The notes: generated by a model not told the origin, from the letters alone. Positions 3,051 through 19,602 are shown, counted from the stretch's first letter. The stretch is DNA of 64,000 bases from a virus (IMGVR_UViG_3300031552_000003:11422-75421), one strand, 5' to 3'. A program made the numbers and translations.

Positions 3051-3088
3051 GGAGGTATGAAAATAAATAAAATTAGGAGGAAAATAGT

Positions 3089-4702
3089 ATGTGGAAAATA
3101 TCAGATGTAGAATCTCACAAAAAGGGGCTTTCCCCTGAGCAAAAAAAGAGGTGGGTATCTGTGGCTAATTCTATTTTAGCTAAATGCATAAAAGATGGAG
3201 GTTCTGATAGTAGTTGTGCCCCTACAGCTATAAGACAAGCCAATAGTGTGGTTGCAAATAATCAACTTTATGTAAATACATCAAATACAAATTACACTAT
3301 AAGAGAGGAGATACACCAAGGGCGCAAGCATATTGTTGTTCCTGTTGTGATGATGGTAGAAGGTGTGCACAATGGAAGTATGGGGCCTTTGTTGCATACT
3401 GCGGAAGAACTTGGCAAGTATCCGGAATCATGGAACGGTATTCCGGTAGTAATAAATCATCCTGTAAACAATGAAGGGGATAATATTTCGGCAAATTCTC
3501 CTGAAATAATTGATTCAGAAGTTACAGTTGGAAAAGTATATCATACACATTTAGTTGATACTAAATTAATGGCTGAAGCTTATTTGGACGAAGAAAAACT
3601 AAACAATATTTCTTCCAATGCTTTGTTGGCAATTATGAATGGAGATCCACTTGAAGTTAGTATAGGTGTTTTTAATGATACAAATATTGAGCCGGGACAA
3701 TGGCATAATGAAAAATATAACGCAGTAGCTATCAACCATAGACCAGACCATCTTGCTCTTTTGCCCGGGGGGATTGGTGCTTGTTCGTGGGAAGATGGTT
3801 GTGGTGTTCGTGTAAATCAAAAAAAGAAAGGAGGTAAAAATATGGTTGTTGATGATGCAGCACAAATTAATGAGGAGAAACAAAAACATATACAATCTAT
3901 TCTTGATGCTAATATGGATCAAGGATATAGGTATATGATAGAATCTGCTCAAAATATGTTGAATAAGATGGATTCGGAAAATGCTTATCATTATTTGGAA
4001 GATATGGATAATACTCATGTGATATATTCTAAAAGAGATAAAAATGATAGGAAAATGCTTAAACAATCTTATGAAATAAATGAAAGCGGGGTTCCGACAT
4101 TGATTAACAATCCAATTGAAGTAAGACAAAAAATAGATTATGTGCCTGTGGTTACTCACATGGTGAGAAGTAAATTTAATGTTAATAAAGGAGGTAAAGC
4201 AATGAATAATAAAGAAGAATGTGGGCAGTGCATGGAGAAAGTTGTAGCTATTATAAATAGTAATGCTGCTGGAATGACTGCTGAAAATCGTGAATGGCTT
4301 TTAACACAGGATGAGCCTGTTTTGGACATGCTTTTGTCCAAGAAACCTGTTGAAAAGAAAGTAGAAGTATCTGCAAAACTTACTTCGGATCAGATATTGG
4401 ATGCAATGTCTGCTGAGGATAAGGCTGCTCTTGCTTTTGGTAGAAAACAATTAGCTGATAAAAGAGCTAATATGATAAAAGGGATTCAGGACAATACTGA
4501 AAAAGATTTATGGCCGGAAGCTGTTTTAAATACCCTTAGTGAAGATTTTCTTGAAAAACTTTACAATTCTGTAAATGTTAATAATAATGATGATGTAGAA
4601 GCTAATTATGCCTTAAATGGCAATTCTCATCGTATGAATGTTAACTTTAATGATGAGGAAGCTTTGTATCCGGTTGGAGTAGAAATTGAAACTACAAAAT
4701 AA
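3089..4702 (+). CDS. Prohead protease/scaffold (DUF2213-like)
   Basis: WNGIPVVINHP, EVSIG, PDHLALL and GACSWEDGCG motifs; helical C-terminal part; strong SD AGGAGG. Confidence 0.8.
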   Translation: MWKISDVESHKKGLSPEQKKRWVSVANSILAKCIKDGGSDSSCAPTAIRQANSVVANNQLYVNTSNTNYTIREEIHQGRKHIVVPVVMMVEGVHNGSMGPLLHTAEELGKYPESWNGIPVVINHPVNNEGDNISANSPEIIDSEVTVGKVYHTHLVDTKLMAEAYLDEEKLNNISSNALLAIMNGDPLEVSIGVFNDTNIEPGQWHNEKYNAVAINHRPDHLALLPGGIGACSWEDGCGVRVNQKKKGGKNMVVDDAAQINEEKQKHIQSILDANMDQGYRYMIESAQNMLNKMDSENAYHYLEDMDNTHVIYSKRDKNDRKMLKQSYEINESGVPTLINNPIEVRQKIDYVPVVTHMVRSKFNVNKGGKAMNNKEECGQCMEKVVAIINSNAAGMTAENREWLLTQDEPVLDMLLSKKPVEKKVEVSAKLTSDQILDAMSAEDKAALAFGRKQLADKRANMIKGIQDNTEKDLWPEAVLNTLSEDFLEKLYNSVNVNNNDDVEANYALNGNSHRMNVNFNDEEALYPVGVEIETTK

Positions 4703-4717
4703 GAAAGGAGAGTAATT

Positions 4718-5233
4718 ATGAAATACAACACAATTAAATTAAAGAATTATTTACATATTCGTGAAGAATATACTGCGGCAGAAGCTATCCTTCCGGGGAT
4801 GTTGGTTGAATTAAACAGTTCCGGGACACTTCAAAAACATTCAGGGGCAGGACAAACAGCTCTTCCTATGTTTGCGATAGAAGATGCTTTACAAGGTAAA
4901 GCGATTGATGAAGCTTATGCAGCTTCAGATAAAGTACAAGTATGGGTCCCTACAAGGGGGGATATTGTATATGGTTTGCTTGCAGATGAGGAAACTGTTG
5001 TTATTGGTGATTTTGTTGAAAGTAATGGGGCTGGGTTTCTTCGTAAATTAGTCCGTACAAATGAGAGTTGGGAATCTGATGATGATGCCCCGGGTGGAGG
5101 GGATCATACTATTTATGATATGCACATTGTAGGACAAGTGCTTGAAGCTAAAGATTTATCTTCTCTTGAAGGTTCTGAATCCAGTGCAGCTACGGCCACA
5201 ACTACGCAGTACACTCAAATTAGAATAATGTAA
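4718..5233 (+). CDS. Head decoration/cement protein
   Basis: Between scaffold and capsid genes; AAEAILPGMLV beta-rich pattern. Confidence 0.7.
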   Translation: MKYNTIKLKNYLHIREEYTAAEAILPGMLVELNSSGTLQKHSGAGQTALPMFAIEDALQGKAIDEAYAASDKVQVWVPTRGDIVYGLLADEETVVIGDFVESNGAGFLRKLVRTNESWESDDDAPGGGDHTIYDMHIVGQVLEAKDLSSLEGSESSAATATTTQYTQIRIM

Positions 5234-5252
5234 TTAAAGAAAGGAGAAGAAA

Positions 5253-6356
5253 ATGAAAAACAACGTAAATGTTGATTTATTAGGTAATGGAGGCGGGAAT
5301 GGACAGGTTGCCAAGATGTTATTGTCTAATGGCAAGCTTAATCCCGGGACAATGCGGCCTTTTATTGGAAATGATGGTAATTCGTATATAACTTATTATA
5401 AGGGGGGTAATCCAAATAAACCGGCGAATTATGTCACACAGCGTATTAATTCAAATGCCACACTTCGTCGTGACGAATGGAAAGCGTTAGATGAATCTTT
5501 GCTTGAAGTAGCTCGTCAACGTCTTGGAGGGGTTCAGGATTTGATTGATAGCGGGCTTACCTATAATTTAGGTAATGCAATGGGTACTACAGTACTTGAA
5601 TATCATGATGTAAGCGATGCAATGGAAGCTGACCTTACTATGGATGGTATTACCCGTGGTAAAAATGATCGTCCTGATTTTAATTATCATTATTTACCTA
5701 TTCCCATAATTCATGTTGATTATGAAATCAATGCTCGTGAATTAGCGGCAAGTAGAAATCTTGGTAATCCTTTGGACACAATTGATGCTCAAACTGCTGC
5801 AAGAAAAGTAGCTGAAAAGTTAGAAGCGATGTTGTTTACCAATACTGATTATTCATTTGGTGAAAAAGGATCGAATGGACGAAATACTATCTATAGTTAT
5901 ATCAACCATCCTGACAGGAATTTGGTTACATTGGATATACATTGGGACGATTCTCCGATTACCGGGGCATTGATTGTACAGGATGTTCTTGCATTAAAAC
6001 AGGCATCTATTGCTGATTATCATTATGGCCCGTGGAAATTATACATCCCGACCAATTATGAAACAGTGCTTGATGGTGATTATGATTCTACTACACCTGG
6101 TACAACTATTCGTGAACGTATTATGAAAATTGCTGGTATTACCGGTATTAAAGTAGTAGATACTTTACCTGCGGACAATGTGCTTTTGGTACAAATGACG
6201 AGTGATGTTGTTCGTTTAGTCCGTGGCATGGGTATTCAGAATGTGGAATGGAAGTCAGAAGGCAATATGGTGACAAATTACAAAGTCATGACAATTCAGG
6301 TTCCGCAGATTCGCAGTGATTATAATAAACGGTCAGGAATTATCCATTTGGCTTAA
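5253..6356 (+). CDS. Major capsid protein (HK97 fold, encapsulin/linocin-like branch)
   Basis: 367 aa; TLRRDEWKALD, LPIPIIHVDY, YGPWKLY motifs; strong SD; synteny. Confidence 0.9.
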   Translation: MKNNVNVDLLGNGGGNGQVAKMLLSNGKLNPGTMRPFIGNDGNSYITYYKGGNPNKPANYVTQRINSNATLRRDEWKALDESLLEVARQRLGGVQDLIDSGLTYNLGNAMGTTVLEYHDVSDAMEADLTMDGITRGKNDRPDFNYHYLPIPIIHVDYEINARELAASRNLGNPLDTIDAQTAARKVAEKLEAMLFTNTDYSFGEKGSNGRNTIYSYINHPDRNLVTLDIHWDDSPITGALIVQDVLALKQASIADYHYGPWKLYIPTNYETVLDGDYDSTTPGTTIRERIMKIAGITGIKVVDTLPADNVLLVQMTSDVVRLVRGMGIQNVEWKSEGNMVTNYKVMTIQVPQIRSDYNKRSGIIHLA

Positions 6357-6400
6357 TTTAAAATTGACTAATCAGGTTAATTAATTTAAAAATTGAAAAA

Positions 6401-6772
6401 ATGATACGAAAAAATAAGGAAAATATTAATACACCATCTTCATTTAATTCTATTACAGAAGGCAGGATTCTTTGGAAAAATAATGGTGGGACTTTGAGGC
6501 TTAGAAAAAATAAAATTATTAAGCCGGGAGAAAAATTTAAAGCTTATCCACATGAAATTCCAAAAGCATTTCGGGATGTTATTATTGCATTAGAACCTGT
6601 TACAGATTTTAAAGAAGTTGAAATGAACATTCCTTCAATTACATATACATTGAAACCAAGTGATGAAAATGAAGGGTTTTTTGACATTTATAATTCTCAG
6701 AATAAAAAGATGAATGAACTTCCATTGGAAGAAGAAGTGGCTAAGCAGTTAATTAAAGATTTACAAAGTTAA
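6401..6772 (+). CDS. Hypothetical capsid-adjacent protein
   Basis: Directly follows the capsid gene; begins MIRK. Confidence 0.5.
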   Translation: MIRKNKENINTPSSFNSITEGRILWKNNGGTLRLRKNKIIKPGEKFKAYPHEIPKAFRDVIIALEPVTDFKEVEMNIPSITYTLKPSDENEGFFDIYNSQNKKMNELPLEEEVAKQLIKDLQS

Positions 6773-6776
6773 TTAT

Positions 6777-7499
6777 ATGTGGCATGTTCCTGAAATATGG
6801 AAGAATGGAGAGTGTTGGATATTAGGGGGAGGGCCCTCGTTAGTAGAACAATTTAATATTCCTAAAAATATTGTTCAAAGTGTTATCGAAGGAAAAACTA
6901 CCCCTAATGCTTATTCTCCGTACATGGAAGCTATACATGATAAGCATGTGATAGGGGTTAACATGTCTTATAAAATAGGAAATTGGATTGATTTTGTTTT
7001 TTTTGGGGATAGTGGGTTTTTTGTTAGAGAGAAAAACAACATATCAATTTTCCCAGGAATAAAAGTATCATGTCATCCACAAGTTGAAAAATGTCCTTGG
7101 GTGAAATATGTTGGAAGGGATACAAAGCACCCAAAAGGAATCAGTTCAAATCCTAAAATGGTTTCATGGAATGCAAATAGTGGTGCAGCATCAATAAGTT
7201 TAGCTGCACACCTTGGGGTAAAGAGAATTATTTTAGTAGGATTTGATATGAAATTAGATGATAGTGGTAAACAACATTGGCATGATTTGTATGGTAAGTT
7301 AAAAAACTTAAATATTAATGCTGGAAAAGAAAAAAGAAGGGGGCCAGGAGGATTGCCTTTTAACAGGCATTTATTAGGATTTTCTCAAATTGCAAAAGAT
7401 GCTAATAATATGGGAATTGAAATTTTAAATGCATCTATTAATAGTGCTATACAAGAATTTAAAAAAGTAAATGTAAAAGATTTAATTACTGTTAAATAA
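6777..7499 (+). CDS. Maf/DUF115 (MptE-like, sialyltransferase-like fold) putative glycosyltransferase
   Basis: ILGGGPSL, IGVN, NSGAASISLAAHLGVKRIILVGFDM motifs. Confidence 0.65.
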   Translation: MWHVPEIWKNGECWILGGGPSLVEQFNIPKNIVQSVIEGKTTPNAYSPYMEAIHDKHVIGVNMSYKIGNWIDFVFFGDSGFFVREKNNISIFPGIKVSCHPQVEKCPWVKYVGRDTKHPKGISSNPKMVSWNANSGAASISLAAHLGVKRIILVGFDMKLDDSGKQHWHDLYGKLKNLNINAGKEKRRGPGGLPFNRHLLGFSQIAKDANNMGIEILNASINSAIQEFKKVNVKDLITVK

Positions 7500-7511
7500 T
7501 TATAATCAATA

Positions 7512-8291
7512 ATGAATACAGTAAGGATTTGTGGAGGAGTTGGAAATCAATTGTTCCAGTATGCTTTTGGAAAATTTCAGGAATTTTTAGGAATATCGGT
7601 AGATTATGATATTTCGTGGTATAATAAACCACAAGTTCCACCAAGGTTATTTAGGTTATGTAAATATAAGATTGATTTAGATAAAAAATTAATTACATCT
7701 AAAGTATATAAAAGAACAATATTAGAAAAAGGGTTTAATTCTAAATCTATTATTGATATTGGGTATAAGTATAGTGGATATTGGCAATCTTCTTTTTATC
7801 ATACAAATATTTTTCCAGTATTAAAGAAAGAATATCAGGTTAAGGAAAATTTTTATACTAAGGAATTTTTAGATTTAAAAAGAAAAATCACACAAAGTAA
7901 TTCAGTTTCTTTGCATGTAAGAAGAGGGGATTATCTTGGAAAAAACAACCAATATGTTTTGCCATTAGAATACTATATTAATGCATTAAAGATATTATCT
8001 TTATTAAAAGGAAATTATGTTGTTTTTGTATTTAGTGATGATATTGCTTGGTGTAAGGAATATTTTCCTAATTTTTATTTTGTACAATTAGATGATTATC
8101 TTGAATTAGAATTGATGAGTTGTTGCAAACATAATATTATTGCAAATAGTACATTTAGTTGGTGGGCAGCATATTTAAATAATAATTCAAATAAAATTGT
8201 AATAGCTCCTAAAAAATGGGTAGCAAGGAAAAAAGATCAAGATTTGATAGATAGAAAAAGGCTTATTTTGCATGATTGGATAAAATTATAG
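7512..8291 (+). CDS. GT11 alpha-1,2-fucosyl/colitosyl-transferase
   Basis: GGVGNQLFQYA, GYWQS, HVRRGDY, NSTFSWWAAYL family motifs. Confidence 0.93.
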   Translation: MNTVRICGGVGNQLFQYAFGKFQEFLGISVDYDISWYNKPQVPPRLFRLCKYKIDLDKKLITSKVYKRTILEKGFNSKSIIDIGYKYSGYWQSSFYHTNIFPVLKKEYQVKENFYTKEFLDLKRKITQSNSVSLHVRRGDYLGKNNQYVLPLEYYINALKILSLLKGNYVVFVFSDDIAWCKEYFPNFYFVQLDDYLELELMSCCKHNIIANSTFSWWAAYLNNNSNKIVIAPKKWVARKKDQDLIDRKRLILHDWIKL

Positions 8292-8294
8292 TTT

Positions 8295-9041
8295 ATGTAT
8301 GATATTTTAGTCCCCGCGCATGAAAAAGATTTTACAAAATTAAGTTTTGTATATGATTCTATTATAAAAAATATTGAAGGATTTAAGGATATTTACCATA
8401 TAACAAATACAAAAGTTCCAAAATATTTAAGAATTTCAGGAATTAATTATTTTTTAGATGATGAAGTTATTGATTTTGATTTTAGTTTGTTTAGAAATAC
8501 GATAAAGAAAAGAACAGGATGGTATCGTCAACAGTTTGTTAAATTATTTCAAAATGTAACTGGGGATGAGTATTTGGTCACAGAAGCTGATAACATATAT
8601 AATAGGAAGATAAATATTATTGAAAACAATAAACCTGTTTTTTTCTTAGGAAAAGACCAAAATCATGCTCCATATTATAAGATAATGCAAAAGTTATTAG
8701 GCTATGGCAGGGAGTATAATTTTTCGTTTATCAATGAGATTATGTATATAAAACGGGAGTATGTAAAAGAACTTGTTGCTTTAACTAAATTAAATAAATA
8801 TGGGTTTTTTGAGTTATTTGCAAATGAATTAAATCGCACACAAGAAACCAGTGGTTGTTCTGATTATGATTTATATGGAAATTTTATTGCTAAATATCAT
8901 GAAGATGAATATTTATATAAACATGTTAAAACTGTTGTAACAGCTAAACATTCGGAATGGTCAGAAAGTGATATTAAAAAACAAATTGATTTATATAAGA
9001 ATACAGATAATATAATGATAAAATTGCATACATGGATTTAG
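8295..9041 (+). CDS. GT-A-like protein (DUF6492-like)
   Basis: GWYRQQFVKL, EAD (DxD-like), SDYDLYGNF; lies within glycan cluster. Confidence 0.55.
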   Translation: MYDILVPAHEKDFTKLSFVYDSIIKNIEGFKDIYHITNTKVPKYLRISGINYFLDDEVIDFDFSLFRNTIKKRTGWYRQQFVKLFQNVTGDEYLVTEADNIYNRKINIIENNKPVFFLGKDQNHAPYYKIMQKLLGYGREYNFSFINEIMYIKREYVKELVALTKLNKYGFFELFANELNRTQETSGCSDYDLYGNFIAKYHEDEYLYKHVKTVVTAKHSEWSESDIKKQIDLYKNTDNIMIKLHTWI

Positions 9042-9910
9042 TGATGTTTCATAGTGGAGAAAAGTTTCCTAATTATCTTGGAGATACTTTTAAACAAATA
9101 CGCATGTTTAACCCTGAATTAAACATTCATTTTTTAGTAGATTCTAAATTTTTGCAAAATAAAGTTTTTATTGATTATAATATAATTGTAGTTAATAAAG
9201 ATTTATATTATACAGATAAGATACATGAGTTAAATCTATTATATAAAAGAAAAGCAAATGATTTTTGGACAATTACAACTACACGTTTGGTTTATATTGA
9301 AAATTATATTGAAAAAAAGGATTTAACAAATGTATATCATTTTGAAAATGATGTATTATTATATCGTTCTTTAAAAGATTTTCATACTTTGTTTACTGTA
9401 AAATATCCATATTTAGCTATTACAGCAGGAAGTAAATATAAATATATGACAGGATTTATGTTTATTAAGAATTATATTGCTATTTCTTTAATGACAAGAT
9501 TTTTTATAGATTTATTAAGTACATATGGTAAAGAGAAAATTATTCGCAAATATAATTTAGGAATGATTCATGAAATGGGATTGATGGGGATTTATGGAAT
9601 TGAAAGAGGTTATATATTCATTACAAAACTGCCTACACTACCAAACTCACCAAATTTTGAAGATTTTAATTCTATTTTTGACCCGGCAGCGTGGGGACAA
9701 TTTGTAGGGGGTACACAAAATGAAGGCCCGGGGGCAAAACCTACAGATCATGATATTAGTCAAGTTTTAATAAAACATCCTGAATATAATGTGATTTGGG
9801 TTAAAGATATTGAAGGTAGAAAAATTCCTTTTTTTAAAATGGGTGATGAGCATATTCGAATTAATAATTTACATATACATTCAAAAAATTTACATTTATA
9901 TTTAAGCTAA
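9032..9910 (+). CDS. Putative GT-A fold glycosyltransferase
   Basis: HFENDVLLY, IFDPAAWGQFVGG, NLHIHSK; cluster context. Confidence 0.55.
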   Translation: MDLVMFHSGEKFPNYLGDTFKQIRMFNPELNIHFLVDSKFLQNKVFIDYNIIVVNKDLYYTDKIHELNLLYKRKANDFWTITTTRLVYIENYIEKKDLTNVYHFENDVLLYRSLKDFHTLFTVKYPYLAITAGSKYKYMTGFMFIKNYIAISLMTRFFIDLLSTYGKEKIIRKYNLGMIHEMGLMGIYGIERGYIFITKLPTLPNSPNFEDFNSIFDPAAWGQFVGGTQNEGPGAKPTDHDISQVLIKHPEYNVIWVKDIEGRKIPFFKMGDEHIRINNLHIHSKNLHLYLS

Positions 9911-10641
9911 TGTTTGATTTTATTCAAGGGGAGAAGTTTGAAAGTTTAGCAGATGGAAAAAACATTTTCTATTGTCATACGCATGATATTAAAGAATTTT
10001 TAAAAAAACATACAAATACTCCACCTTATATTTTAATTACGCATAATAGTGATAATTGCATTGATTTTAATGCCCCGGACAATGTTATTAAATGGTATGC
10101 ACAAAATGTAAATATAATTGACCCTAAAATAGAATCTTTACCTATTGGTCTTGAAAATGCTAAATGGTTGAAGCGTATTCCTAAGATTAAAAAAATGGAA
10201 GAGAAACTTTTACAACCAAGAAAATATAGGAATCTTTTATATGTAAATCATACAATAGCACATAATCCGGAACATAGATATAAACCATATCAAATATTTA
10301 AGAATAAAACATGGGTTACGATGCAATATGGGCATAATGGAAAAGATTTTGATACATATCTTGATAATTTGTATAATCATAATTTTACTATTTCTCCACA
10401 GGGAAATGGGATAGATTGTCCGCGAACCTGGGAATGTTTGTATATGGGGACGGTCCCAATTGAAAAAAGAAATATAAATAATCAATTTTATACAGACTTA
10501 CCAATATGTTTTGTAGATGATTGGGAGGAAGTAACTGAGGATTTTTTAGTATCAGAATACATAAGAATAAAAACTGGTAAATGGAATATGGATAAATTGA
10601 ATTTTGAATATTGGAAAAACAAAATATTTAACTACGTATGA
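9910..10641 (+). CDS. Exostosin/GT47-like glycosyltransferase
   Basis: ISPQGNGIDCPRTWECLYMGTVP motif. Confidence 0.7.
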   Translation: MFDFIQGEKFESLADGKNIFYCHTHDIKEFLKKHTNTPPYILITHNSDNCIDFNAPDNVIKWYAQNVNIIDPKIESLPIGLENAKWLKRIPKIKKMEEKLLQPRKYRNLLYVNHTIAHNPEHRYKPYQIFKNKTWVTMQYGHNGKDFDTYLDNLYNHNFTISPQGNGIDCPRTWECLYMGTVPIEKRNINNQFYTDLPICFVDDWEEVTEDFLVSEYIRIKTGKWNMDKLNFEYWKNKIFNYV

Positions 10642-11705
10642 AAATAATTGTTATTGGTGCAGGAATATTTGGGATTACAATAGCTTTGGAATTATCTAAA
10701 AAGTATAAGGATATTACTTTAGTGGATATGAATAATGATATTATGCAAAATGCATCAAAAGTAAATCATAATAGATTGCATTTCGGTTTCCATTATCCCA
10801 GAAGTAAAACAACTGCTGTGCAAAGTTTGGACGGGTATAAATTATTTCATGATTGTTTTAGTAATGCTATAACTTCTGATTTTGAAAATTATTATATGAT
10901 TGAAAAAAATAGTTATGTTAATAGTGAAAATTATGAACATTTTTGTGATGATTTACATTTGATATATAAAAAACAATCTCCTAAGTTAGATATAAATTTT
11001 GATAGGGTTGAATCTTCTTATTTAACAAATGAACCTATTTTTGATTATGATTTAATAAAGTTGAAATTAGATAAAGATTTGAAATGTTCAGGAATTAAAC
11101 TTCTTTTGAATAAGAGAATAACAAATAAAAAAGATTTAGAAGGATATGATGTAGTTATTAATACTACTTATTTTAATATTAATAAAATAAAAGGTATTTT
11201 AGATTTACCACAAACTAAATTAAAATTACAAACAGTAATCATTCCAATTTTTAAGTATAAAGCACATAAGGTGGGATTAACTATAATGGATGGAAAGTTT
11301 TGTAGTATTATGCCAAAAGGGTTTAATGATAACACATTTTTATTATACCATGTTAAAGAATCAGTTGTATATCAAACAGAAAATATGGAGATTCCGAAAA
11401 TATGGTATTATGGAAAAGAAATTATAAAAAATAATTTTTTGAAAAAGCATGTGTATGATAATGTTATAGTTAAACATCAAGTTAATAAAATAGTGAAGGA
11501 ATCTCAAAAATATTTTAGATTTATTGAAAATTGTGATTTTGTGGATTATTGGCAAACTGTAAGGGCTTTACCAATTAATGATGATGATGAGAGATTAAGT
11601 ATATTTGATATATTAGAACAAAATAATCAGAAAATTGTATCTGTATTGTCTGGCAAAATATCAACTTGTTTATTAATTGCAAATAATATATCTAAATTGA
11701 TATGA
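10638..11705 (+). CDS. FAD-dependent oxidoreductase (DAO-like)
   Basis: IGAGIFG dinucleotide-binding motif; NRLHFGFHYPRS; SGKIST. Confidence 0.85.
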   Translation: MKIIVIGAGIFGITIALELSKKYKDITLVDMNNDIMQNASKVNHNRLHFGFHYPRSKTTAVQSLDGYKLFHDCFSNAITSDFENYYMIEKNSYVNSENYEHFCDDLHLIYKKQSPKLDINFDRVESSYLTNEPIFDYDLIKLKLDKDLKCSGIKLLLNKRITNKKDLEGYDVVINTTYFNINKIKGILDLPQTKLKLQTVIIPIFKYKAHKVGLTIMDGKFCSIMPKGFNDNTFLLYHVKESVVYQTENMEIPKIWYYGKEIIKNNFLKKHVYDNVIVKHQVNKIVKESQKYFRFIENCDFVDYWQTVRALPINDDDERLSIFDILEQNNQKIVSVLSGKISTCLLIANNISKLI

Positions 11706-12451
11706 TGAATAGTATTTTATTTGGTAATGGGTATTGGGCTAATATAGTTAAAGAGAAGATTGTTAGTTTGACGAATTTAGTATTAATTGTGGATTCAAAA
11801 ACTGATATTAGTATTTGGAATAAGATTAATGTGGATATAGCTTTTGTTTGTTCATCAACTTCAAGTCATTATGATATAGTTAAAAAATGTTTGGATAACA
11901 ATATTAAATATATCTTTTGTACAAAACCATTTACAGGGGATTATAAGAAAGCTAAAGAATTATTTAGTATAGCAAATCGAAAAGGAATTTTTATTTTTAT
12001 TGATAATCTATTTTTATATAGAAAAGAAATTATTGATATTAAATTAAAAAATATACAAAATTTTGTTTTTCATTGGGAGAAACCACATAAAATAAACATG
12101 GAAAGCATATATGATAGTTTACTTTATCATGATTTATATTTATTGTTAAAATGGAGTAAGTCTAAAAAATGGAAGGTTATTTTTGTTGATAGATATGATG
12201 ATTCATTATATCTATACATGATTAATGAATATTATCAAACTTGTTATTTTGAGTATAATATAAGTGGAAGAAAAAATAAATGGATCATATTTGGTGATTT
12301 TGTTGTAAATTTAACAACAACAAAACAAGATTCATTAAAAGAGTGTATTATTGATATGTTGCAAGGTGATATAGATTTTGATTCAAATAAAAAGGTAACA
12401 TTAGATACTTTGAAATTGTTAAATTTTATTCAAAAAAACCATGATAAATGA
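11702..12451 (+). CDS. Gfo/Idh/MocA-family NAD(P) oxidoreductase
   Basis: GNGYWA; HYDIV; IFCTKP (EKP variant); HDLY. Confidence 0.7.
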   Translation: MMNSILFGNGYWANIVKEKIVSLTNLVLIVDSKTDISIWNKINVDIAFVCSSTSSHYDIVKKCLDNNIKYIFCTKPFTGDYKKAKELFSIANRKGIFIFIDNLFLYRKEIIDIKLKNIQNFVFHWEKPHKINMESIYDSLLYHDLYLLLKWSKSKKWKVIFVDRYDDSLYLYMINEYYQTCYFEYNISGRKNKWIIFGDFVVNLTTTKQDSLKECIIDMLQGDIDFDSNKKVTLDTLKLLNFIQKNHDK

Positions 12452-13022
12452 TAAATATGTTGATTTATTAAAAGATGAGTATAAGCAATCGTATTTATTA
12501 TATAAAAAAGGCTTATTAAAATTAGAAGCTTGGAGTTCTCATCAACCTTTGTTAATCCATGTTTTAAATACAATTAAAAGTGGGGATGTTTTAGAATTTG
12601 GTACAGGATATAATAGCACTCCAATAATGCATATCATTTGTGCATTTCAACAACGAAAATTGTTATCAATTGAAACAAATAAAAAATGGGTAGAAAAATC
12701 ATTGAAATGGAGAAATATTAATCATGTAATTGAATTAGTTTCTTCTAAAGAAATATTAAAACATTCTCTTTTTAGACATAAATTTTCAATAGCTTTTATT
12801 GATGGTGCCCCGGCGGAGGTTCGTCAACCTTTTTTAGAAAAAGTACAAGCAGATTATCTTATTGTACATGATACAGAATGTGTAGTAAGAGGAATTAAAA
12901 ATGTATATGGTTATGATTTTTCTATGTTTAAACATGTTTATCATTTTAAAAAAGATTCTACTATGACTACATTATTAAGTAATTTGGATAAAATTGATAA
13001 AGATTTATTAACTATATTTTAA
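12441..13022 (+). CDS. Class I SAM-dependent methyltransferase
   Basis: VLEFGTGYNST, AFIDG, IVHDTE motifs. Confidence 0.75.
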   Translation: MINDKYVDLLKDEYKQSYLLYKKGLLKLEAWSSHQPLLIHVLNTIKSGDVLEFGTGYNSTPIMHIICAFQQRKLLSIETNKKWVEKSLKWRNINHVIELVSSKEILKHSLFRHKFSIAFIDGAPAEVRQPFLEKVQADYLIVHDTECVVRGIKNVYGYDFSMFKHVYHFKKDSTMTTLLSNLDKIDKDLLTIF

Positions 13023-13027
13023 AAAGT

Positions 13028-14203
13028 ATGATTCCATTGATGCGAAATACATTTTTAAATGAATGTGATACTAAACAAGCTCTTGCAAAATTTATTATAG
13101 GAGCGGAAGTATTAAGCATGAATATTCAATGCAAGTCTTTTGAAATAGCTTTTGCTCAAAAGCAAAACAGGGATGAAGCCATTCTTTTTAATAGTGGAGG
13201 GAGTGCTAATTTAGCTTTGTTGCAATCTTTAAAGAATTTAGGTCGAATTAAAGAAGGGGATAAAATAGGGTTTTCTGCATTGACTTGGGCGACAAATGTG
13301 ATGCCTATCATACAAATGGGATTTGTTCCGGTGGCAATAGATTGTGAGGTGAATACATTAAATATAAGTCCAGAACAATTATTATCTGTTATAAAAAATA
13401 TAGATTTAAAAGTATTATTTCTTACAAATGTATTAGGGTTTATAGATAATATTAATGGTATTAAAAATATTTGTGATGAGTGGGGGATTATTTTACTTGA
13501 AGATAATTGTGAAGCATTAGGGACTGAGACTATATATGGAAAAACAGGTAATTTTGGAATTGCCTCTACTTTTTCTTTCTTTGTAGCTCACCATATGTCA
13601 ACTATTGAAGGGGGGATGGTTTGTACTGACAATGAAGAGTTAACCGAAATGTTAAAAATAGTACGTGCGAATGGGTGGGATAGAAATCTTTCAATTAAGC
13701 AACAAAGAAAATGGAGAGAAAAGTTTGATATAAAATCTGAATTTGATGCAAAATATACTTTTTATGATTTAGGATATAATTTAAGGCCTACTGAAATAAC
13801 AGGTTTTTTAGGTTGTTTACAATTGGAATGTTTGAATGATAGTATTAGTAAGCGAGAAATGAATTATTTATTAATTGAAGATACAATAAAGGAAAATAAT
13901 GATTTTATAAATATTAAGCATGATCATATTGTTCAATTATCACCATTTGCAATTCCAATAATTTGTAAAACCCCTGAATTAAAAAAGAAATATTTATCCA
14001 AATGTTTTGATTCGGGAATTGAAACCAGGCCAATGATTGCTGGAAACATGCAAAATCAACCATTCTATAAAAAATATGTAAAACAAACGTATAATTTACC
14101 AAACAGTGATTTTTTACATAATAATAGTTTTTATTGTGGAAACTATCCTGAGATGACAAAAGAAGATTTAAAAATAATAAAAGATGTTTTAATCAAAAAC
14201 TAA
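13028..14203 (+). CDS. colD: DegT/DnrJ-family PLP enzyme, ColD-like GDP-4-keto-6-deoxymannose 3-dehydratase
   Basis: NSGGSANL, LEDNCEALG, SFFVAHHMSTIEGG (His where aminotransferases have the Schiff-base Lys), RANGWDRNL, GYNLRP; no Fe-S Cys cluster. Confidence 0.78.
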   Translation: MIPLMRNTFLNECDTKQALAKFIIGAEVLSMNIQCKSFEIAFAQKQNRDEAILFNSGGSANLALLQSLKNLGRIKEGDKIGFSALTWATNVMPIIQMGFVPVAIDCEVNTLNISPEQLLSVIKNIDLKVLFLTNVLGFIDNINGIKNICDEWGIILLEDNCEALGTETIYGKTGNFGIASTFSFFVAHHMSTIEGGMVCTDNEELTEMLKIVRANGWDRNLSIKQQRKWREKFDIKSEFDAKYTFYDLGYNLRPTEITGFLGCLQLECLNDSISKREMNYLLIEDTIKENNDFINIKHDHIVQLSPFAIPIICKTPELKKKYLSKCFDSGIETRPMIAGNMQNQPFYKKYVKQTYNLPNSDFLHNNSFYCGNYPEMTKEDLKIIKDVLIKN

Positions 14204-14207
14204 GAGT

Positions 14208-15146
14208 ATGAATATTGATAGTAAAATATTAGTAACAGGTTGTCAGGGAATGACTGGTTGGGCAGTTATAAGAGAATTGAATAGGCAGGGATATGTAAAT
14301 ATTTATTGTGTTGACAGAGTTGATTGTGATTTATTAGATCAAAAGAGAGTATTAACTCTTTTTGAAAAAATAAGACCAGAATATGTTTTTCATATAGCAG
14401 GAAAAGTAGGAAGTATTTATGCAAATGATACTCAAAGTGGGGATTTTATTTATGAAAATCTTGTAATGCAATGTAATGTTATTGAATCTGCAAAATTATA
14501 CAATGTAACGAAACTTTTATTTTGTGGTTCCGCTTGTGTTTATCCAAATTCTGATTCTCAACCTATTAAAGAAGAAGATTTATTAACCGGGCCACTTGAA
14601 AAAACAAATATAGGTTATGCTATTGCTAAAATAGCAGGTGTCATAATGTGTCAAATGTATAATAAGCAACATAGATGTAATTTTATTTCTGCTATACCTG
14701 CAAATATTTATGGGATAGGAGATAACTTTAATTTAACTTCGGCGCATGTGGTACCTGGTTTAATTAATAAATTTCATGAAGCAAAGACAAGTAAAATTTC
14801 AAGTGTGGAAGTTTGGGGGACGGGGGAAGCTTGTAGAGAATTTATTTATGTGGATGACCTTGCGAAAGGTTTAGTTCATATAATGAATAATTATGATAAT
14901 TCAGAAGTTATTAATATAGGCACGGGTATTAGTATTCAGATTAAAGATATTGTTAGAATTATAAAAGATGTTGTAGGATACACAGGTGAAATAATTTATA
15001 ATAATAATTTTGAAGGTGTCCGGGATCGTTGTTTAGATATAACTAAAATAAAAAGTCTTGGATGGGAAGCTAAGACTGATTTTAGAGAAGGTATAAAAAA
15101 TGTTTATGATTGGTATGTTAATAATTATACTTTTTTAAGAAAATGA
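14208..15146 (+). CDS. fcl: GDP-L-fucose synthase / ColC-like epimerase-reductase
   Basis: TGCQGMTG, GSACVYP, YAIAK (YxxxK), PANIYG, HVVPGLI, WGTG..REFIYVDD. Confidence 0.9.
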   Translation: MNIDSKILVTGCQGMTGWAVIRELNRQGYVNIYCVDRVDCDLLDQKRVLTLFEKIRPEYVFHIAGKVGSIYANDTQSGDFIYENLVMQCNVIESAKLYNVTKLLFCGSACVYPNSDSQPIKEEDLLTGPLEKTNIGYAIAKIAGVIMCQMYNKQHRCNFISAIPANIYGIGDNFNLTSAHVVPGLINKFHEAKTSKISSVEVWGTGEACREFIYVDDLAKGLVHIMNNYDNSEVINIGTGISIQIKDIVRIIKDVVGYTGEIIYNNNFEGVRDRCLDITKIKSLGWEAKTDFREGIKNVYDWYVNNYTFLRK

Positions 15147-15820
15147 GCACAATAAAAACTATAGTATTAGTATTAAGAAGTGGAAAGGATTTTTCCATGA
15201 GTGATGTAGAATTGATTAATAGACATATTAATATTAAATGGCAATCAGAAGAAAAATTTCGTGTAATTTGTTTATGGGATAAGGCTACCCAACATTATAA
15301 ATTAGGCAATTTGGAATTGATTCCATTGAAAAATAATTACCCGGGCACGTGGTCTCGTATGCAATTATATAGTCCTGAAATGGAACAATATCGTCCTTTT
15401 TTATATATAGACTTGGATACAGCAATTATTACTTCTATTAAAAATATTTTTGATTTGGTAAAAGATGAATCAAAATTTATTACACTTGAAGATTTTTGGC
15501 AAAAGAGACAATTAGCTACAGGCTTAGTTTGGTTTCCAAATAATTCACAAAAAATAAAACATGTGTGGGATATATGGATAAAAGAACACCAAACAAGAGG
15601 GTCAAGAATGGATATGTTTTTACGTAAACATATTGAAGCAGATATTTTTTGGCAGCAATTAACAGATTTAATTGTTGATTTTAAACCAAAAAACAGACAA
15701 CTTGTAACTAAATTGCCAAAAGATGTTAATTTGGTATGTTTTCATGGTAAACCACGGGTACATCAAGCTATAAATATTGCATGGGTAAATGATTATGTAA
15801 ATTATGAATTATGCGTGTAA
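15143..15820 (+). CDS. GT-A (GT8-like) glycosyltransferase
   Basis: LYIDLDT (DxD) and VCFHGKPR motifs. Confidence 0.75.
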   Translation: MSTIKTIVLVLRSGKDFSMSDVELINRHINIKWQSEEKFRVICLWDKATQHYKLGNLELIPLKNNYPGTWSRMQLYSPEMEQYRPFLYIDLDTAIITSIKNIFDLVKDESKFITLEDFWQKRQLATGLVWFPNNSQKIKHVWDIWIKEHQTRGSRMDMFLRKHIEADIFWQQLTDLIVDFKPKNRQLVTKLPKDVNLVCFHGKPRVHQAINIAWVNDYVNYELCV

Positions 15821-16425
15821 GTATTATAATCCCATATAAAGAAGATAGAGGATGGTTAAAAAAAGCTGTTAAGAGTGTCCCAAAGAAGAATGTGCAGCTT
15901 ATCCTTAGTCAGGGAGAAGGAAATTGGCCTCAAAATTTTAATAAAGCATTATCACAAGCTGATGGTGATTTAATAAAATTTTTGCATGAAGATGATATGC
16001 TTACACCAAATGCAATTGAAAGTTATATTAAGGCATTTAGAAGCCCGTCATTTAAAGATATTCATTTTGCACATGGGAATGCTTGGGAAATATTTATGTG
16101 CTCAACACGCCCTCCTAAATTGTATATACCAAGAATTGTATTGCCCACATTTGAAAATTTATTAATGCGAAATACTATACATAGTGCTTCTTTGATTTAC
16201 AGAAGGGAAGTATTTGAAAAAATTGGGAATTTAAATGAATCAGAAAATGTATATTCTTTTGAAGAGTATGAATTTAATTTACGTTGTTTAAAAGGAAATT
16301 TGAATATTGGTTATATTAACATACCTTTGGCATATTATCGCCGTCATCCTAAACAAATTATAAGAACTTGTAATATTTCTGAAAGAAAGCAAAACAGGGC
16401 TGAACTTTTAAAAAAATACATATGA
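15811..16425 (+). CDS. GT2 glycosyltransferase
   Basis: VSIIIP, FLHEDD, RREVFEKIG, EEYEF, YYRRH. Confidence 0.9.
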   Translation: MRVSIIIPYKEDRGWLKKAVKSVPKKNVQLILSQGEGNWPQNFNKALSQADGDLIKFLHEDDMLTPNAIESYIKAFRSPSFKDIHFAHGNAWEIFMCSTRPPKLYIPRIVLPTFENLLMRNTIHSASLIYRREVFEKIGNLNESENVYSFEEYEFNLRCLKGNLNIGYINIPLAYYRRHPKQIIRTCNISERKQNRAELLKKYI

Positions 16426-17120
16426 TTAAAGATAATTCAAATATTCCAATTTTTATTACAGGGGCACAGCGTTCTGGAACAACAATCATTGCAAAGATTA
16501 TAGGCATGTGCGATGTTTTTACAGGGGATATATCAGAGATGATGGAAAATGGTTCTATTAAAGAATTAAATACAATATATATTGGTGGAGTTTTAGGAAT
16601 TGATGAAAGGGGGCAATTTCCGTTACCAGATACAAAAGAATTATTAATTCCAATGAATTGGAAAAAATGTGTCCATGATATTTTAGTTGAAGAAGGATAT
16701 GATAAAAATAAGATATGGATGTTTAAAAGCCATGCTATTTGTCAATTATGGCCTATATGGAATCATGCATATCCAAATGCTAAATGGATTATAGTACGCA
16801 GGCGTACTGGTGATATTATTTATTCATGTATGAAAACAGCATATATGAATGCTTTTAAAGATAAGGTAATTCAAAAAGCAGTAGGTGCAAATAATGAACA
16901 GGAAGGTTGGCTTTGGTGGGTACGGCAACATGAAAAATTATTTGTTGAAATGATTGAAGCTGGGTTAAATTGTAAAGTTATTTGGCCTGAGCGTATGGTA
17001 AATGGTGATTATTCCCAGATATATGAGATGCTTGAATGGTTAGGTTTGAAATGGGATGATTCAATTGTAAAAACTATTGATCCGCTTTTATGGAACAGCA
17101 GACAAAAGGAAAGGAAATAA
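16422..17120 (+). CDS. PAPS-dependent sulfotransferase
   Basis: FITGAQRSGTT PSB loop; PNAKWIIVRR...S. Confidence 0.8.
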   Translation: MIKDNSNIPIFITGAQRSGTTIIAKIIGMCDVFTGDISEMMENGSIKELNTIYIGGVLGIDERGQFPLPDTKELLIPMNWKKCVHDILVEEGYDKNKIWMFKSHAICQLWPIWNHAYPNAKWIIVRRRTGDIIYSCMKTAYMNAFKDKVIQKAVGANNEQEGWLWWVRQHEKLFVEMIEAGLNCKVIWPERMVNGDYSQIYEMLEWLGLKWDDSIVKTIDPLLWNSRQKERK

Positions 17121-17123
17121 GAT

Positions 17124-17504
17124 ATGGCAGTAAGGGTGACAGCTGATGAGGTAAAAGAAATAATGGATGGTGTTACATCATCTGATCCTACTATAGAAAT
17201 ATTTATTACAGCAGCAAGTGCTGTAATAGATAATGTATTTACAGGGGATACTGTAATAGGGACAACTTTATTAAAGGAGCTTGAAAGATGGCTTACGGCA
17301 CACATGTTAGCTTCTACTCTTTTTAGAATGTCTGTACAAGAAAAACTTGGCGAAGCTGAAGTAAAATATATGGGAAAATGGGGAGAAAACCTCGCGTCTA
17401 CACCATATGGTCAAATGTTAAAAGTGCTTGATACAACCGGTAAAATAAGCCAATTGGGGAAATCTTCTGCTACTATGTATGCTATAACAAGTTTTGATGA
17501 TTAA
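17124..17504 (+). CDS. Head-tail adaptor (connector)
   Basis: WLTAHML and LASTPYGQ motifs; synteny. Confidence 0.75.
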   Translation: MAVRVTADEVKEIMDGVTSSDPTIEIFITAASAVIDNVFTGDTVIGTTLLKELERWLTAHMLASTLFRMSVQEKLGEAEVKYMGKWGENLASTPYGQMLKVLDTTGKISQLGKSSATMYAITSFDD

Positions 17505-18451: not shown

Positions 18452-18649
18452 TTATCTTATTTTAAATGATATGGTCATAGTAAAAGTTTTACCATGTTTT
18501 TCCTTTAAAATAGAGGATTCCTCTAAAAAAGGGCATAAATTTATTAGTTTGTTAAAATTATATTTAGATTTTTTTATATCAGAAAATGTTTCAAAATATT
18601 GTAGTACTTTAATTAAATCTTCTGTGGTTGTTTTTTTATTGTAATGCAT
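18452..18649 (-). CDS. Small antisense moron-like hypothetical protein
   Basis: 65 aa ORF filling the gap in the tail operon, with its own promoter motif upstream. Confidence 0.5.
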   Translation of the reverse strand: MHYNKKTTTEDLIKVLQYFETFSDIKKSKYNFNKLINLCPFLEESSILKEKHGKTFTMTISFKIR

Positions 18650-18671
18650 AATTTTATTTATTAGTATAATA

Positions 18672-18679
18672 CAAATATA
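18672..18679 (-). promoter_or_regulatory. Bacteroidota-type -7 box TATATTTG
   Basis: Matches TAnnTTTG; flanking AT-rich sequence resembles that at 40695. Confidence 0.55.
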
Positions 18680-18735
18680 AATAAAATTTTTAATTTAAAA
18701 ATTAAATTTAATAAAATTTAATAAAATATTTTAAA

Positions 18736-19146: not shown

Positions 19147-19173
19147 TTTAAATTTAAAAAAGGAGGTAATAAT

Positions 19174-19602
19174 ATGAGTAATGCTATAACAGGGGTAGGT
19201 ACTATATTTCGCAGGTGGAATGGTTCTGCCTGGGAGAATATTGCTGAAATTAATTCGATTAACGGTCCTGGTATGTCAAGAGATACAATTGATGTGACTT
19301 CTCTTGATTCTACCGGGGGGTATCGTGAATTTATCGCGGGTTTTCGTAATGCTGGGACAGTAACTCTTGCAATGAATTTTACAAGGGATACGTATGATCT
19401 GATGAAAACAGATTTTGAGGATGATGATTTACAAAATTACGAAATAGTTCTGCCAGATGTTGAAAATACCACGTTGGAATTTGAAGGTTTGGTAACTGAA
19501 TTGCCATTATCTATATCGGCAGATGATAAAATTACTGCGGATGTGACACTTCAGATAAGCGGACAAGTAACGGTTAATTCCGGGGCAAGTTCTGGTGTAT
19601 AG
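19174..19602 (+). CDS. Major tail tube protein
   Basis: RDTIDVTSLDS..YREFIAG; LQISG; strong SD AAGGAGGT. Confidence 0.9.
   Translation: MSNAITGVGTIFRRWNGSAWENIAEINSINGPGMSRDTIDVTSLDSTGGYREFIAGFRNAGTVTLAMNFTRDTYDLMKTDFEDDDLQNYEIVLPDVENTTLEFEGLVTELPLSISADDKITADVTLQISGQVTVNSGASSGV

Follow-up and report, generated by a model that had tools for sequence, protein, structure and literature searches.

Maf proteins act in the cytoplasm, where they glycosylate Ser and Thr residues of a self-assembling structural protein, flagellin. In the giant viruses (chloroviruses and mimiviruses), the capsid and fibrils are glycosylated by a virus-encoded, cytoplasmic, multi-enzyme machinery. Serotype-converting modules of the Gtr, Oac and Wzy types need membrane proteins and lysogeny. 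Among tailed phages, the mycobacteriophages Che8, Corndog and other cluster O phages, and Myrna, glycosylate their virions (Freeman et al. 2023, PMID 37329881, as cited in PMC11600133 and PMC12619734), and phage-encoded glycosyltransferases are known that hypermodify DNA by adding a variety of glycans (Pyle et al. 2024, as cited in PMC12619734).

The locus described here belongs to an uncultured salt-marsh phage, tailed and prokaryote-infecting, with a genome of 75 kb and approximately 30% GC; the window analysed is a 64,000-nt stretch of that genome (IMGVR_UViG_3300031552_000003:11422-75421), and every feature given below with coordinates is on its + strand. Positions 6777–17120 are filled by exactly 13 ORFs (g01–g13) spaced by −11 to +12 nt, which agrees with the initial annotation of thirteen tightly coupled, co-oriented genes between the capsid and head–tail genes. 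Upstream lie the genes for the portal (691–2109), MuF (2121–3050), the protease/scaffold (3089–4702) and the HK97-like major capsid protein (DUF6260; 5253–6356), and the downstream boundary is formed by the DUF4054 head–tail adaptor (PF13262; 17124–17504). Between the portal gene and the head-completion genes the array, island included, is unbroken, with no gap longer than 44 nt, and no intergenic terminator-like site was found within the 13-gene block, as had been noted before, nor across this array. Seven of the genes separating capsid and adaptor are of transferase type, and the replication module is on the strand opposite to the island and the head operon. The 75 kb genome contains no match to the integrase family PF00589 or to the thymidylate-synthase-like hydroxymethylase family PF00303.

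Comparison with 56 unique related IMG/VR loci, comprising 437 cassette proteins, identifies the block as a single allele of an island that is hypervariable in a large clade of uncultured siphoviruses. Synteny in related phages, proposed earlier as a check, places 0–13 genes at a single fixed site, in 46 distinct architectures whose proteins fall into 87 clusters, with the window holding the largest version. Nearly all of the clusters belong to glycan chemistry, among them GT2/4/8/9/10/11/29/32/64-like and KpsC/S-like proteins, O- and C-methyltransferases, B12-radical SAM, a formyltransferase and a TupA ATP-grasp. The frame is constant, with o123 and a Maf-like gene at the 5′ end and a GT8-like gene and a sulfotransferase at the 3′ end. 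In L060-62 the DUF4054 adaptor directly follows the capsid gene, with no cassette; in L072 the site is empty, weak GT1-like and sulfotransferase-like ORFs follow the tail tube gene, and the capsid, decoration and tail tube proteins carry Thr-rich tails. The earlier statement that multi-TM proteins are absent extends to the whole set, as none of the 437 cassette proteins has three or more hydrophobic segments, nor was an initiating phosphoglycosyltransferase, flippase or polymerase found among them.

The fixed first gene of the island, o123 (6401–6772), encodes a small two-domain protein and is present in 50 of the 56 loci, being missing from the cassette-less L060-62 and L072. Fold searches returned no match for o123, no Shine–Dalgarno site was found at the gene, and its composition is not Ser/Thr-rich. 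The fixed 5′ enzyme, g01 (6777–7499; 49/56 loci, and the sole enzyme in the minimal island of L024), is a predicted Maf/GT42-fold transferase, sialyltransferase-like and of the CMP-sugar type. An AF2 model (pLDDT of 88.7) matches residues 262–513 of Maf (VIA; Z-score of 15.0 and r.m.s.d. of 4.3 over 193 residues with PDB entry 5mu5) and Cst-I (VIA; Z-score of 11.4 with PDB entry 2p56). A Foldseek search, the structural check suggested by the initial annotation and run for g01, places Maf and CstII at the top, and phrog_4603 ‘alpha-2,3-sialyltransferase’ is matched at 8e-29. The sequence falls under the PF01973 gathering threshold (24.9 bits versus 34.6), with a match confined to residues 136–160; on the predicted model, the catalytic-domain fold is confirmed as Maf/GT42 type.

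Three genes point to deoxysugar chemistry. The GT11 (fucosyl/colitosyl-type) transferase g02 (7512–8291; 23/56 loci) matches PF01531 at 2e-27, with 96.7 bits against a gathering threshold of 23.9 and coverage of profile positions 32–295 of 298. The protein encoded by g09 (13028–14203) is a ColD-type GDP-4-keto-6-deoxymannose 3-dehydratase (4e-55 over the full length with ColD, PDB entry 2gms; DegT 1.3e-54). Its ‘AHH’ aligns to the ColD ‘SHH’, so that the His that replaces the PLP-binding Lys (ColD His188) is kept; the position is marked in the alignment by the H188N mutant entry 3b8x. The adjacent g10 (14208–15146) encodes a GDP-L-fucose synthase-like epimerase/reductase (Fcl or ColC), matching NCBIfam GDPFucSynFcl at 1.6e-110 (369 bits, equivalog cut-off 500) and GDP-fucose synthases in the PDB at up to 2.8e-79. 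As g10 itself is the sole PF16363 match in the genome, the phage has no GDP-mannose 4,6-dehydratase, and the substrate of the ColD pathway must therefore be supplied by the host. Deoxysugar chemistry from ColD, the ColC-like enzyme and GT11 is well supported by these predicted functions.

At the 3′ end, g11 (15143–15820) encodes a GT8-like retaining glycosyltransferase (phrog_1962, 6e-29) that recurs as the partner of the sulfotransferase; its family profile, A5, matches the Skp1 alpha-galactosyltransferase (1.2e-5 with PDB entry 6mw5) and glycogenins. The GT2 glycosyltransferase g12 (15811–16425; PF00535, 1.3e-6) forms, in some relatives, a fusion with the g11 type. The fixed 3′ gene g13 (16422–17120; 46/56 loci) encodes a PAPS-type sulfotransferase (PF13469, 3.6e-9; 37.6 bits, cut-off 27), the closest solved relatives of which are TPST1/2 (family profile A2, 1.8e-7, full length). 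The protein carries GAQRSGTT and RRRTGDIIYS at the 5′-PSB and 3′-PB, and across 31 homologues R17, S18, G19, R127 and S135 vary little or not at all. With these conserved PAPS motifs, and an APS kinase gene adjoining the sulfotransferase in three relatives, sulfation of the product is plausible and well supported. The GT8-like and sulfotransferase genes are usually adjacent and are duplicated as a unit in L009, L030, L031 and L067, which suits sulfation of the added sugar.

Six genes lie between g02 and g09. The protein encoded by g03 (8295–9041) is a probable glycosyltransferase of the DUF6492 family (PF20102, 2.6e-5, barely over the cut-off); the gene is found in nine of the 56 loci, each time alongside g04. 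The latter (9032–9910) belongs to a virus-restricted family with a conserved ENDV motif and had no match in a Pfam search. In the ESM Atlas it has viral clusters without names as neighbours (Uroviricota, Nucleocytoviricota), the nearest named families being Nucleotid_trans/DUF6492, and this language-model lead makes g04 a weak candidate for a GT-A-like transferase. An RXYLT1_C/GT47-like transferase may be encoded by g05 (9910–10641; 19/56 loci), with PF24785 (1.4e-5) and PF03016 (4e-3) each under the cut-off, so that the earlier GT47-like label survives only as a weak match. Two oxidoreductases occur in the window alone among the 56 loci: g06 (10638–11705; GC 0.23), FAD-dependent with a DAO-type N-terminus (PF01266, 1.5e-11) and generic PDB matches only, and g07 (11702–12451), a short NAD(P) enzyme of the Gfo/Idh/MocA type (PF01408, 7e-10) with PDB matches restricted to the Rossmann segment. 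A class I methyltransferase is possible for g08 (12441–13022), in which an EFGxG motif is conserved; NCBIfam PRK14968 (9e-4) is the only match, and Pfam and hhalign do not support the label. Of the enzyme labels given by the initial annotation, Maf/GT42, GT11, ColD, Fcl/ColC-like, GT8-like, GT2, sulfotransferase, FAD and Gfo/Idh/MocA hold, and g03 is of the DUF6492 family and probably a glycosyltransferase, whereas g04 and g08 are weak; of the complex glycan that it envisaged, the deoxysugar and the sulfation are well supported, with methylation in the window a weak prediction.

Candidate acceptor sites lie on the decoration and tail tube proteins and not on the capsid protein, as the major capsid protein has no Ser/Thr-rich extension. 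The capsid decoration protein o171 (4718–5233; phrog_766 ‘head decoration’, 2.8e-11) has a strong Shine–Dalgarno site, with AGGAG upstream of the start, and its family profile, A7, matches the decoration protein gp40 (4e-8 with PDB entry 9ocb_H) and a capsid stabilizing protein (4e-6 with PDB entry 5wk1_X). Loop R1 (residues 112–136; 5051–5125) is acidic with one Tyr and varies among relatives, in many of which it is acidic with the Tyr conserved; it comprises only 4–6 residues in the cassette-less L060-62. The C-terminal loop R2 (residues 146–166; 5153–5215), in which 10 of 21 residues are Ser or Thr, is a candidate O-glycosylation site. Most phages that carry a cassette have its Ser motif, which is weak in L064 and L069 and missing from L034; the four phages without a cassette all lack it, R2 being 10 residues long in cassette-less relatives. 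The candidate second acceptor is the lambda-like tail tube protein o142 (19174–19602; PF16460/PF16461/PF06199), also with a strong Shine–Dalgarno site (AGGAGG upstream of the start), the TTP fold of which is followed by a C-terminal Ser/Gly tail, NSGASSGV (19576–19599). All 30 loci that carry g01 have a tail of this type and none of three without g01 does, a contrast that is not significant because at most three of the contrasts are independent; SG occurs within the last 10 residues in 4 of the 77 ORFs of the genome. Together, the decoration-loop and tail-tube associations span at most three independent lineages, independent-pairs tests have no power, and the raw correlation of island size with loop length (rho of 0.62) is lost in sister pairs. 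Three points add to the initial annotation: the hypervariable-island allele, the place of g11 in a recurrent GT8-like plus sulfotransferase module, and the decoration and tail tube proteins as the proposed acceptors.

The best reading of the island is that it probably glycosylates and sulfates the phage’s own virion. The late, cytoplasmic virion glycan put forward by the initial annotation is the best supported proposal given the synteny, the missing membrane, integrase and DNA-hydroxymethylase genes, and the Ser/Thr-rich tails of two high-copy virion proteins, all of them indirect indications. What the coat does for the phage would be a matter of camouflage, adsorption or stability, as the initial annotation suggested might be the case. 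In the scheme that we infer, from its timing and donors to its acceptors and the order of its steps, the enzymes would be produced together with the structural proteins and act in soluble form in the cytoplasm, drawing on the host precursors GDP-4-keto-6-deoxymannose, a CMP-sugar and PAPS. ColD (g09) and the Fcl/ColC-like enzyme (g10) would yield GDP-colitose or a related GDP-6-deoxyhexose, the sugar of which would be transferred by the GT11 enzyme g02. A CMP-activated sugar would be added by g01, which may prime Ser/Thr. The chain could be extended by five further transferases (g03, g04, g05, g11 and g12) and its sugars tailored by g06–g08, and g13, usually paired with a GT8-like enzyme, would sulfate the product. 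The likeliest acceptors are the exposed Ser/Thr-rich segments of the o171 C-terminal loop and the Ser/Gly tail of the tail tube protein.

Remodelling of the host surface is an unlikely alternative, in which soluble transferases would act on undecaprenyl-linked O-antigen or capsule intermediates at the cytoplasmic face, for export by host flippases, and could block superinfection or keep progeny off debris. The GT11, GT2, GT8, GT9-like, KpsC/S-like and ColD/ColC families are those of O-antigen and capsule loci, colitose is an established O-antigen sugar, and in its hypervariability the island resembles O-antigen loci. Since the peripheral transferases of O-antigen synthesis have no TM helix either, a lack of membrane proteins would by itself still leave room for action on host lipid-linked glycans; however, this lack extends to initiating enzymes, flippases and polymerases across all 437 cassette proteins. 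Lysogenic conversion is moreover unlikely because there is no integrase, and the island occupies a fixed site in the head operon, rather than lying as a moron by an attachment site, and co-occurs with Ser/Gly tails on virion proteins.

We consider it distinctly unlikely that the acceptor is non-structural (o123, another cytoplasmic protein of phage or host, or a small molecule), with a product outside the particle. The protein o123 always occurs with the island, has no fold match and lacks the strong Shine–Dalgarno site of the high-copy virion genes, and the GT8 relatives glycogenin and Skp1 galactosyltransferase modify cytoplasmic proteins. Yet o123 is not rich in Ser/Thr, and a non-structural acceptor would not explain why the island sits in the head operon or why the decoration and tail tube proteins have acceptor-like tails.

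There is a slim chance that, alongside glycosylation, g13 sulfates a protein Tyr in an acidic virion loop rather than a sugar. Its relationship to TPST1/2 and the conserved Tyr of the acidic R1 would fit, but R1 and its Tyr are present in phages without g13 (L022, L024, L026, L040 and L041) and missing in several that have it (L008, L016, L047, L048, L064 and L066), and g13 keeps to its GT8-like neighbour, with which it is duplicated. Glycosylation of the phage DNA, as a hypermodified base against restriction, is highly improbable despite the known DNA-modifying glycosyltransferases, since the genome has no PF00303 match, the island is in the head operon and opposite the replication module, and sulfotransferase and GDP-deoxyhexose chemistry have, to our knowledge, no precedent on DNA.

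Virion glycosylation and sulfation, the preferred reading, can be compared with each of the known systems. Like serotype-converting modules, the island consists of phage-encoded glycan-modifying genes, but the genome has neither multi-TM membrane components (Gtr, Wzx, Wzy or an initiating transferase) nor signs of lysogeny (PF00589). GDP-colitose O-antigen loci are resembled by the full-length ColD with its active-site His, the Fcl/ColC-type g10 and the GT11 gene in one block; unlike those loci, the phage lacks Gmd, ManB and ManC, which means that its pathway must branch from the host pool; it also has no Wzx, Wzy or initiating transferase, and its genes are in a virion operon. The catalytic fold of g01 is that of Maf (5mu5) and the GT42 enzymes Cst-I/Cst-II (Z-scores of 15.0 and 11.4). 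However, g01 has 240 residues against the 632 of Maf and aligns with the central domain alone, the flanking N- and C-terminal (flagellin-binding) domains being absent. Neither a CMP-sugar synthetase nor a nonulosonic-acid pathway is encoded by the phage. The virus-encoded, cytoplasmic, multi-enzyme machinery recalls that of giant viruses, and families of the g03/g04/g05 type have Nucleocytoviricota neighbours, which is a lead only; here, however, the virus is tailed, has a 75 kb genome and infects a prokaryote.

With the mycobacteriophage type, as far as it is described in the papers cited above, the island shares phage-encoded soluble glycosyltransferases and a methyltransferase (here putative) in or beside the structural genes. 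The mycobacteriophage glycans sit, and those predicted here may sit, on segments at the C-terminal end of high-copy virion proteins, one of them the tail tube subunit. The setting differs, with a genome of approximately 30% GC, and the candidate head acceptor is the decoration protein and not the capsid protein. The mycobacteriophages described there have 2–4 genes against 13 in the island, which adds a sulfotransferase, an enzyme of the Maf/GT42 fold and a ColD/ColC-like pathway to a nucleotide sugar; among its many relatives the island is also hypervariable, while its site stays fixed. Set against that published work, it would represent a much more elaborate version of the virion glycosylation seen in mycobacteriophages.

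The window spans bases 11422–75421 of a 75.4-kb IMG/VR virus record that was judged complete, and the contig sequence was found in salt-marsh metagenome runs. The virion genes form one plus-strand array over bases 1–28.5 kb, with the replication module on the opposite strand, and no tRNA genes were detected in the genome. The head part of the array comprises, in order and all on the plus strand, the portal (691–2109), a MuF-like protein (2121–3050), the protease/scaffold (3089–4702), the capsid decoration protein o171 (4718–5233; phrog_766, with profile matches to the solved decoration proteins 9ocb_H and 5wk1_X), the HK97-type major capsid protein (5253–6356) and a 123-residue ORF, o123 (6401–6772). 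An island of 13 plus-strand ORFs, g01–g13, follows at 6777–17120 and is bounded downstream by the DUF4054 adaptor gene (17124–17504, plus strand). The island ORFs overlap or lie at most 12 nt apart, and the block contains two terminator-like hairpins, both weak and both within ORFs; the observation in the initial annotation of 13 tightly packed genes with no terminator between them is therefore confirmed as written. The sole real break in the array, 284 nt long (18452–18735), separates the head-completion genes from the tail terminator gene; a 65-residue ORF lies within it on the opposite strand. Upstream of the window, the same genome (L079) encodes a 1,281-residue ORF (L079:1736–5581) whose intein includes a homing endonuclease domain of the LAGLIDADG type. 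At L079:6684–10080, an ORF of 914 residues that weakly matches PKD precedes an esterase of the GDSL/SGNH type; the two may represent a tail fibre and a polysaccharide deacetylase for receptor processing.

The first island gene encodes the Maf-like protein g01, whose model has a mean pLDDT of 88.7. Structural comparison ranks the catalytic domain of Maf, a flagellin glycosyltransferase, first (Z-score of 15.0 over 193 residues with 5mu5) and the GT42 sialyltransferase Cst-I second (Z-score of 11.4). The Pfam MptE-like score is below threshold and the flanking domains of Maf are missing; g01 therefore shows a CMP-sugar transferase fold without being a full Maf. At the other end of the island, g11 belongs to a GT8-like family whose profile matches Skp1 alpha-galactosyltransferase and glycogenins, and the sulfotransferase g13 has conserved PAPS-binding motifs, with protein-tyrosine sulfotransferases as its nearest solved relatives.

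Between these ends, the alignment of g09 with ColD (2gms; 4e-55) spans the whole protein, and g09 retains the diagnostic histidine in place of the usual PLP lysine. The g10 protein is of the GDP-fucose-synthase type and scores under the equivalog cut-off, as would be expected for a divergent Fcl as well as for ColC; its GTDB relatives reach no more than 50% identity and come from several phyla. Together with g02, which gives a clear GT11 match, g09 and g10 are predicted to form a coherent GDP-colitose or GDP-6-deoxyhexose branch. The enzyme labels of the initial annotation stood for GT11, ColD, GT2 (g12) and the sulfotransferase, and the transferase labels of g03 (DUF6492) and g05 (RXYLT1_C/GT47) found weak matches. 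Assignment of g08 as a methyltransferase is doubtful, with nothing in its support from Pfam searches of eight homologues or from hhalign against a Methyltransf_24 cassette protein. No family was found for g04 (9032–9910), labelled GT-A-like: Pfam on nine homologues and a comparison with the GT8-like profile were both empty. It is confidently folded (Atlas pTM of 0.91), and its ESM Atlas neighbours are all viral, from tailed phages and Nucleocytoviricota, one of them fused to a GT47 domain. The products of g06 and g07 are a generic FAD oxidoreductase and a generic Gfo/Idh/MocA oxidoreductase, matching solved structures only over generic Rossmann segments. Gmd, CMP-sugar synthetase and APS kinase are not encoded by this phage, so the corresponding precursors must be supplied by the host.

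IMG/VR searches that used the capsid and decoration proteins as queries yielded approximately 150 related loci, and relatives of the decoration protein are encoded on at least 395 IMG/VR contigs. The synteny check called for by the initial annotation showed a hypervariable island at a fixed site: in the 56 unique loci with both boundaries on the contig, between 31 nt and 10.8 kb separate the capsid gene from the DUF4054 gene, a space always filled with plus-strand ORFs, which encode 437 cassette proteins in 87 clusters (49 found in a single locus) and 46 architectures. The island of the window is the largest among them. The frame around this variation is constant, with o123 (50 of 56 loci) and then the Maf-like gene (49 of 56) at the 5′ end, and the sulfotransferase as the last gene (46 of 56), mostly preceded by a GT8-like gene, at the 3′ end. 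The GT8-like and sulfotransferase genes are duplicated as a unit in several phages, and in three relatives an APS kinase gene adjoins the sulfotransferase gene (L013:18497–18955, with homologues in L030 and L046); some phages therefore help to make their own sulfate donor. The variable middle includes GT2, GT4, GT8, GT9, GT10, GT29, GT32 and GT64-like transferases and KpsC/S-like proteins, along with FkbM/TylF/C-methyltransferases, a B12-radical SAM enzyme, a formyltransferase, a TupA ATP-grasp protein and cupins. The sulfotransferase family forms at least 1,300 clusters at 90% identity in metagenomes, many of them on phage-sized contigs.

The nearest relative, L001, has a capsid protein 87% identical to that of the window and shares 10 of the 13 enzyme genes; g06, g07 and g08 are absent from it, and one unrelated gene stands in their place. 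Among the 56 loci, g06 and g07 occur in the window only and g08 occurs in seven others, and these three genes have the lowest GC content of the island (0.22–0.25). In the minimal island of L024, the Maf-like gene is the sole enzyme gene. Fusions were also observed: the GT8-like g11 and GT2 g12 are joined in one ORF of approximately 430 residues in L016, L019, L023, L044 and others, and a 451-residue ORF in L077 apparently joins two island enzymes. A second scan, seeded with the capsid protein of L062, recovered no cassette-less relatives besides L060–L062.

Three sequence features point to the virus particle as the target of the island, namely the expression signals, a loop of the decoration protein and the tail of the tail tube protein. 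Strong Shine–Dalgarno sequences (AGGAGG or AGGAG; 3075–5260 and 19150–19180) occur only before the protease/scaffold, decoration, capsid and tail tube genes. The other 26 plus-strand genes examined, including o123 and all 13 enzyme genes, have none, with a partial AGGA before the DUF4054 adaptor gene. This pattern would fit abundant substrates and catalytic amounts of enzyme being made from one transcript. The decoration protein has two variable loops, R1 and R2, beyond its conserved core, and R2 (residues 146–166) contains ten Ser/Thr residues. Most island-bearing relatives have its Ser-rich motif, which is weak in L064 and L069 and missing from L034; in L060–L062 and L072, which have no island at the site, R2 is a 10-residue loop and the motif is absent. 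The tail tube protein (19174–19602; Pfam TTP families), whose C-terminal peptide in the window is NSGASSGV, carries a Ser/Gly or Ser/Gly/Thr tail past its fold in 30 of 30 loci with the Maf-like gene, and this tail is missing in all three loci without it (L062, L072 and L034, the last nested among island-bearing phages), an association that comprises at most three independent contrasts, for which independent-pairs tests are powerless. In L072 (IMGVR_UViG_3300038954_000053; bases 4189–7095), no island lies between the capsid and adaptor genes; the tail tube gene is immediately followed by ORFs with weak GT1-like (4e-4) and sulfotransferase-like (1.7e-3) matches, and the capsid, decoration and tail tube proteins carry Thr-rich tails.

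Island size correlates with R2 length in the raw data (Spearman 0.78, n = 36; 0.62, n = 56), but the link is not robust to phylogeny and was discounted: the three to four usable independent pairs are inconsistent in sign, and the sister pairs divide 4:2. The major capsid protein was rejected as an acceptor. That of the window has no Ser/Thr-rich extension and is distinguished from its counterparts in cassette-less relatives solely by six inserted residues, which the cassette-bearing L064 also lacks.

Glycosylation of the virion is probably the function of the island. The enzymes would be produced late, along with the head proteins, and g01 would attach a CMP-activated sugar to Ser/Thr residues of the exposed tails. 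The remaining transferases could then lengthen the chain, with g09, g10 and g02 contributing a colitose or fucose-type residue; g06–g08 may modify a sugar, and the GT8-like/sulfotransferase pair may add and then sulfate a terminal residue. In this scheme, o123 might serve as an adaptor or accept glycan to a minor extent. Each of these steps is less secure than the overall assignment.

Remodelling of the host envelope by the island is unlikely. The absence of multi-TM proteins noted initially holds across the relatives, where all 437 cassette proteins have fewer than three hydrophobic segments, and no integrase was found in the genome, which together argue against lysogenic serotype conversion; the lack of membrane proteins alone leaves host lipid-linked intermediates as a possible target. 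There is only a slim chance that the acceptor is non-structural, for example o123. For this protein (AlphaFold2 model with pLDDT of 75.8 and pTM of 0.39), BFVD, a VIA-wide PDB search (best Z-score of 5.0), a profile-to-PDB search and the ESM Atlas yielded nothing informative. As a variant of virion modification, sulfation of tyrosine by g13 is improbable because the Tyr-bearing loop R1 fails to co-occur with g13. DNA modification can practically be dismissed, as the genome encodes no thymidylate-synthase-type hydroxymethylase.

Extended to the relatives, virion glycosylation suggests a broader picture that is plausible, if just short of an even bet: a widespread clade of uncultured siphoviruses (the at least 395 contigs and 1,300 sulfotransferase clusters) would wear a strain-specific 'serotype', a hypervariable sulfated deoxysugar glycan, Maf-like primed on Ser/Gly-rich decoration and tail tube tails and swapped by cassette at a fixed head-operon site, like O-antigen loci. 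If so, complex, fast-evolving glycan coats (here of 3,6-dideoxyhexose and sulfate) would be common on environmental phages, and both the sulfation of glycans on virion proteins of a bacterial virus and a phage equivalent of O-antigen diversity would be new. Such coats would alter the view of the particle surface, in its charge, its stickiness to mucus, particles and sulfated polysaccharides, and its resistance to proteases and recognition, and would add an axis of phage diversity invisible to capsid-sequence taxonomy. Protein-glycosylation enzymes that are soluble, need no membrane and come with short acceptor tags would also be attractive for glycoengineering.

In INPHARED, no phage has a capsid protein more than 35% identical to that of the window, and the sulfotransferase has no match; no account of a comparable island turned up in literature searches. 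Distant Maf-like homologues lie beside other glycosyltransferases and a methyltransferase, after the tail genes, in Caulobacter phage CcrColossus (gp126–131; L080), and in the P1/P7 operon annotated 'head morphogenesis' (phage P7 hdmB–hdmD; L081), which hints that the theme is broader. To our knowledge, virion glycosylation has been demonstrated only in a small number of mycobacteriophages, which each use a handful of enzymes. As cited in two later papers (PMC11600133, PMC12619734), capsid and tail tube C-termini are glycosylated in these phages, a case mirrored by the candidate acceptor tails described here; the mycobacteriophage system has two to four transferases and a methyltransferase. 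By comparison, the island of the window differs in its larger scale (13 genes), its own nucleotide-sugar branch, its Maf-fold enzyme and its sulfotransferase, and in a fixed-site, O-antigen-like hypervariability that extends over a large uncultured clade.
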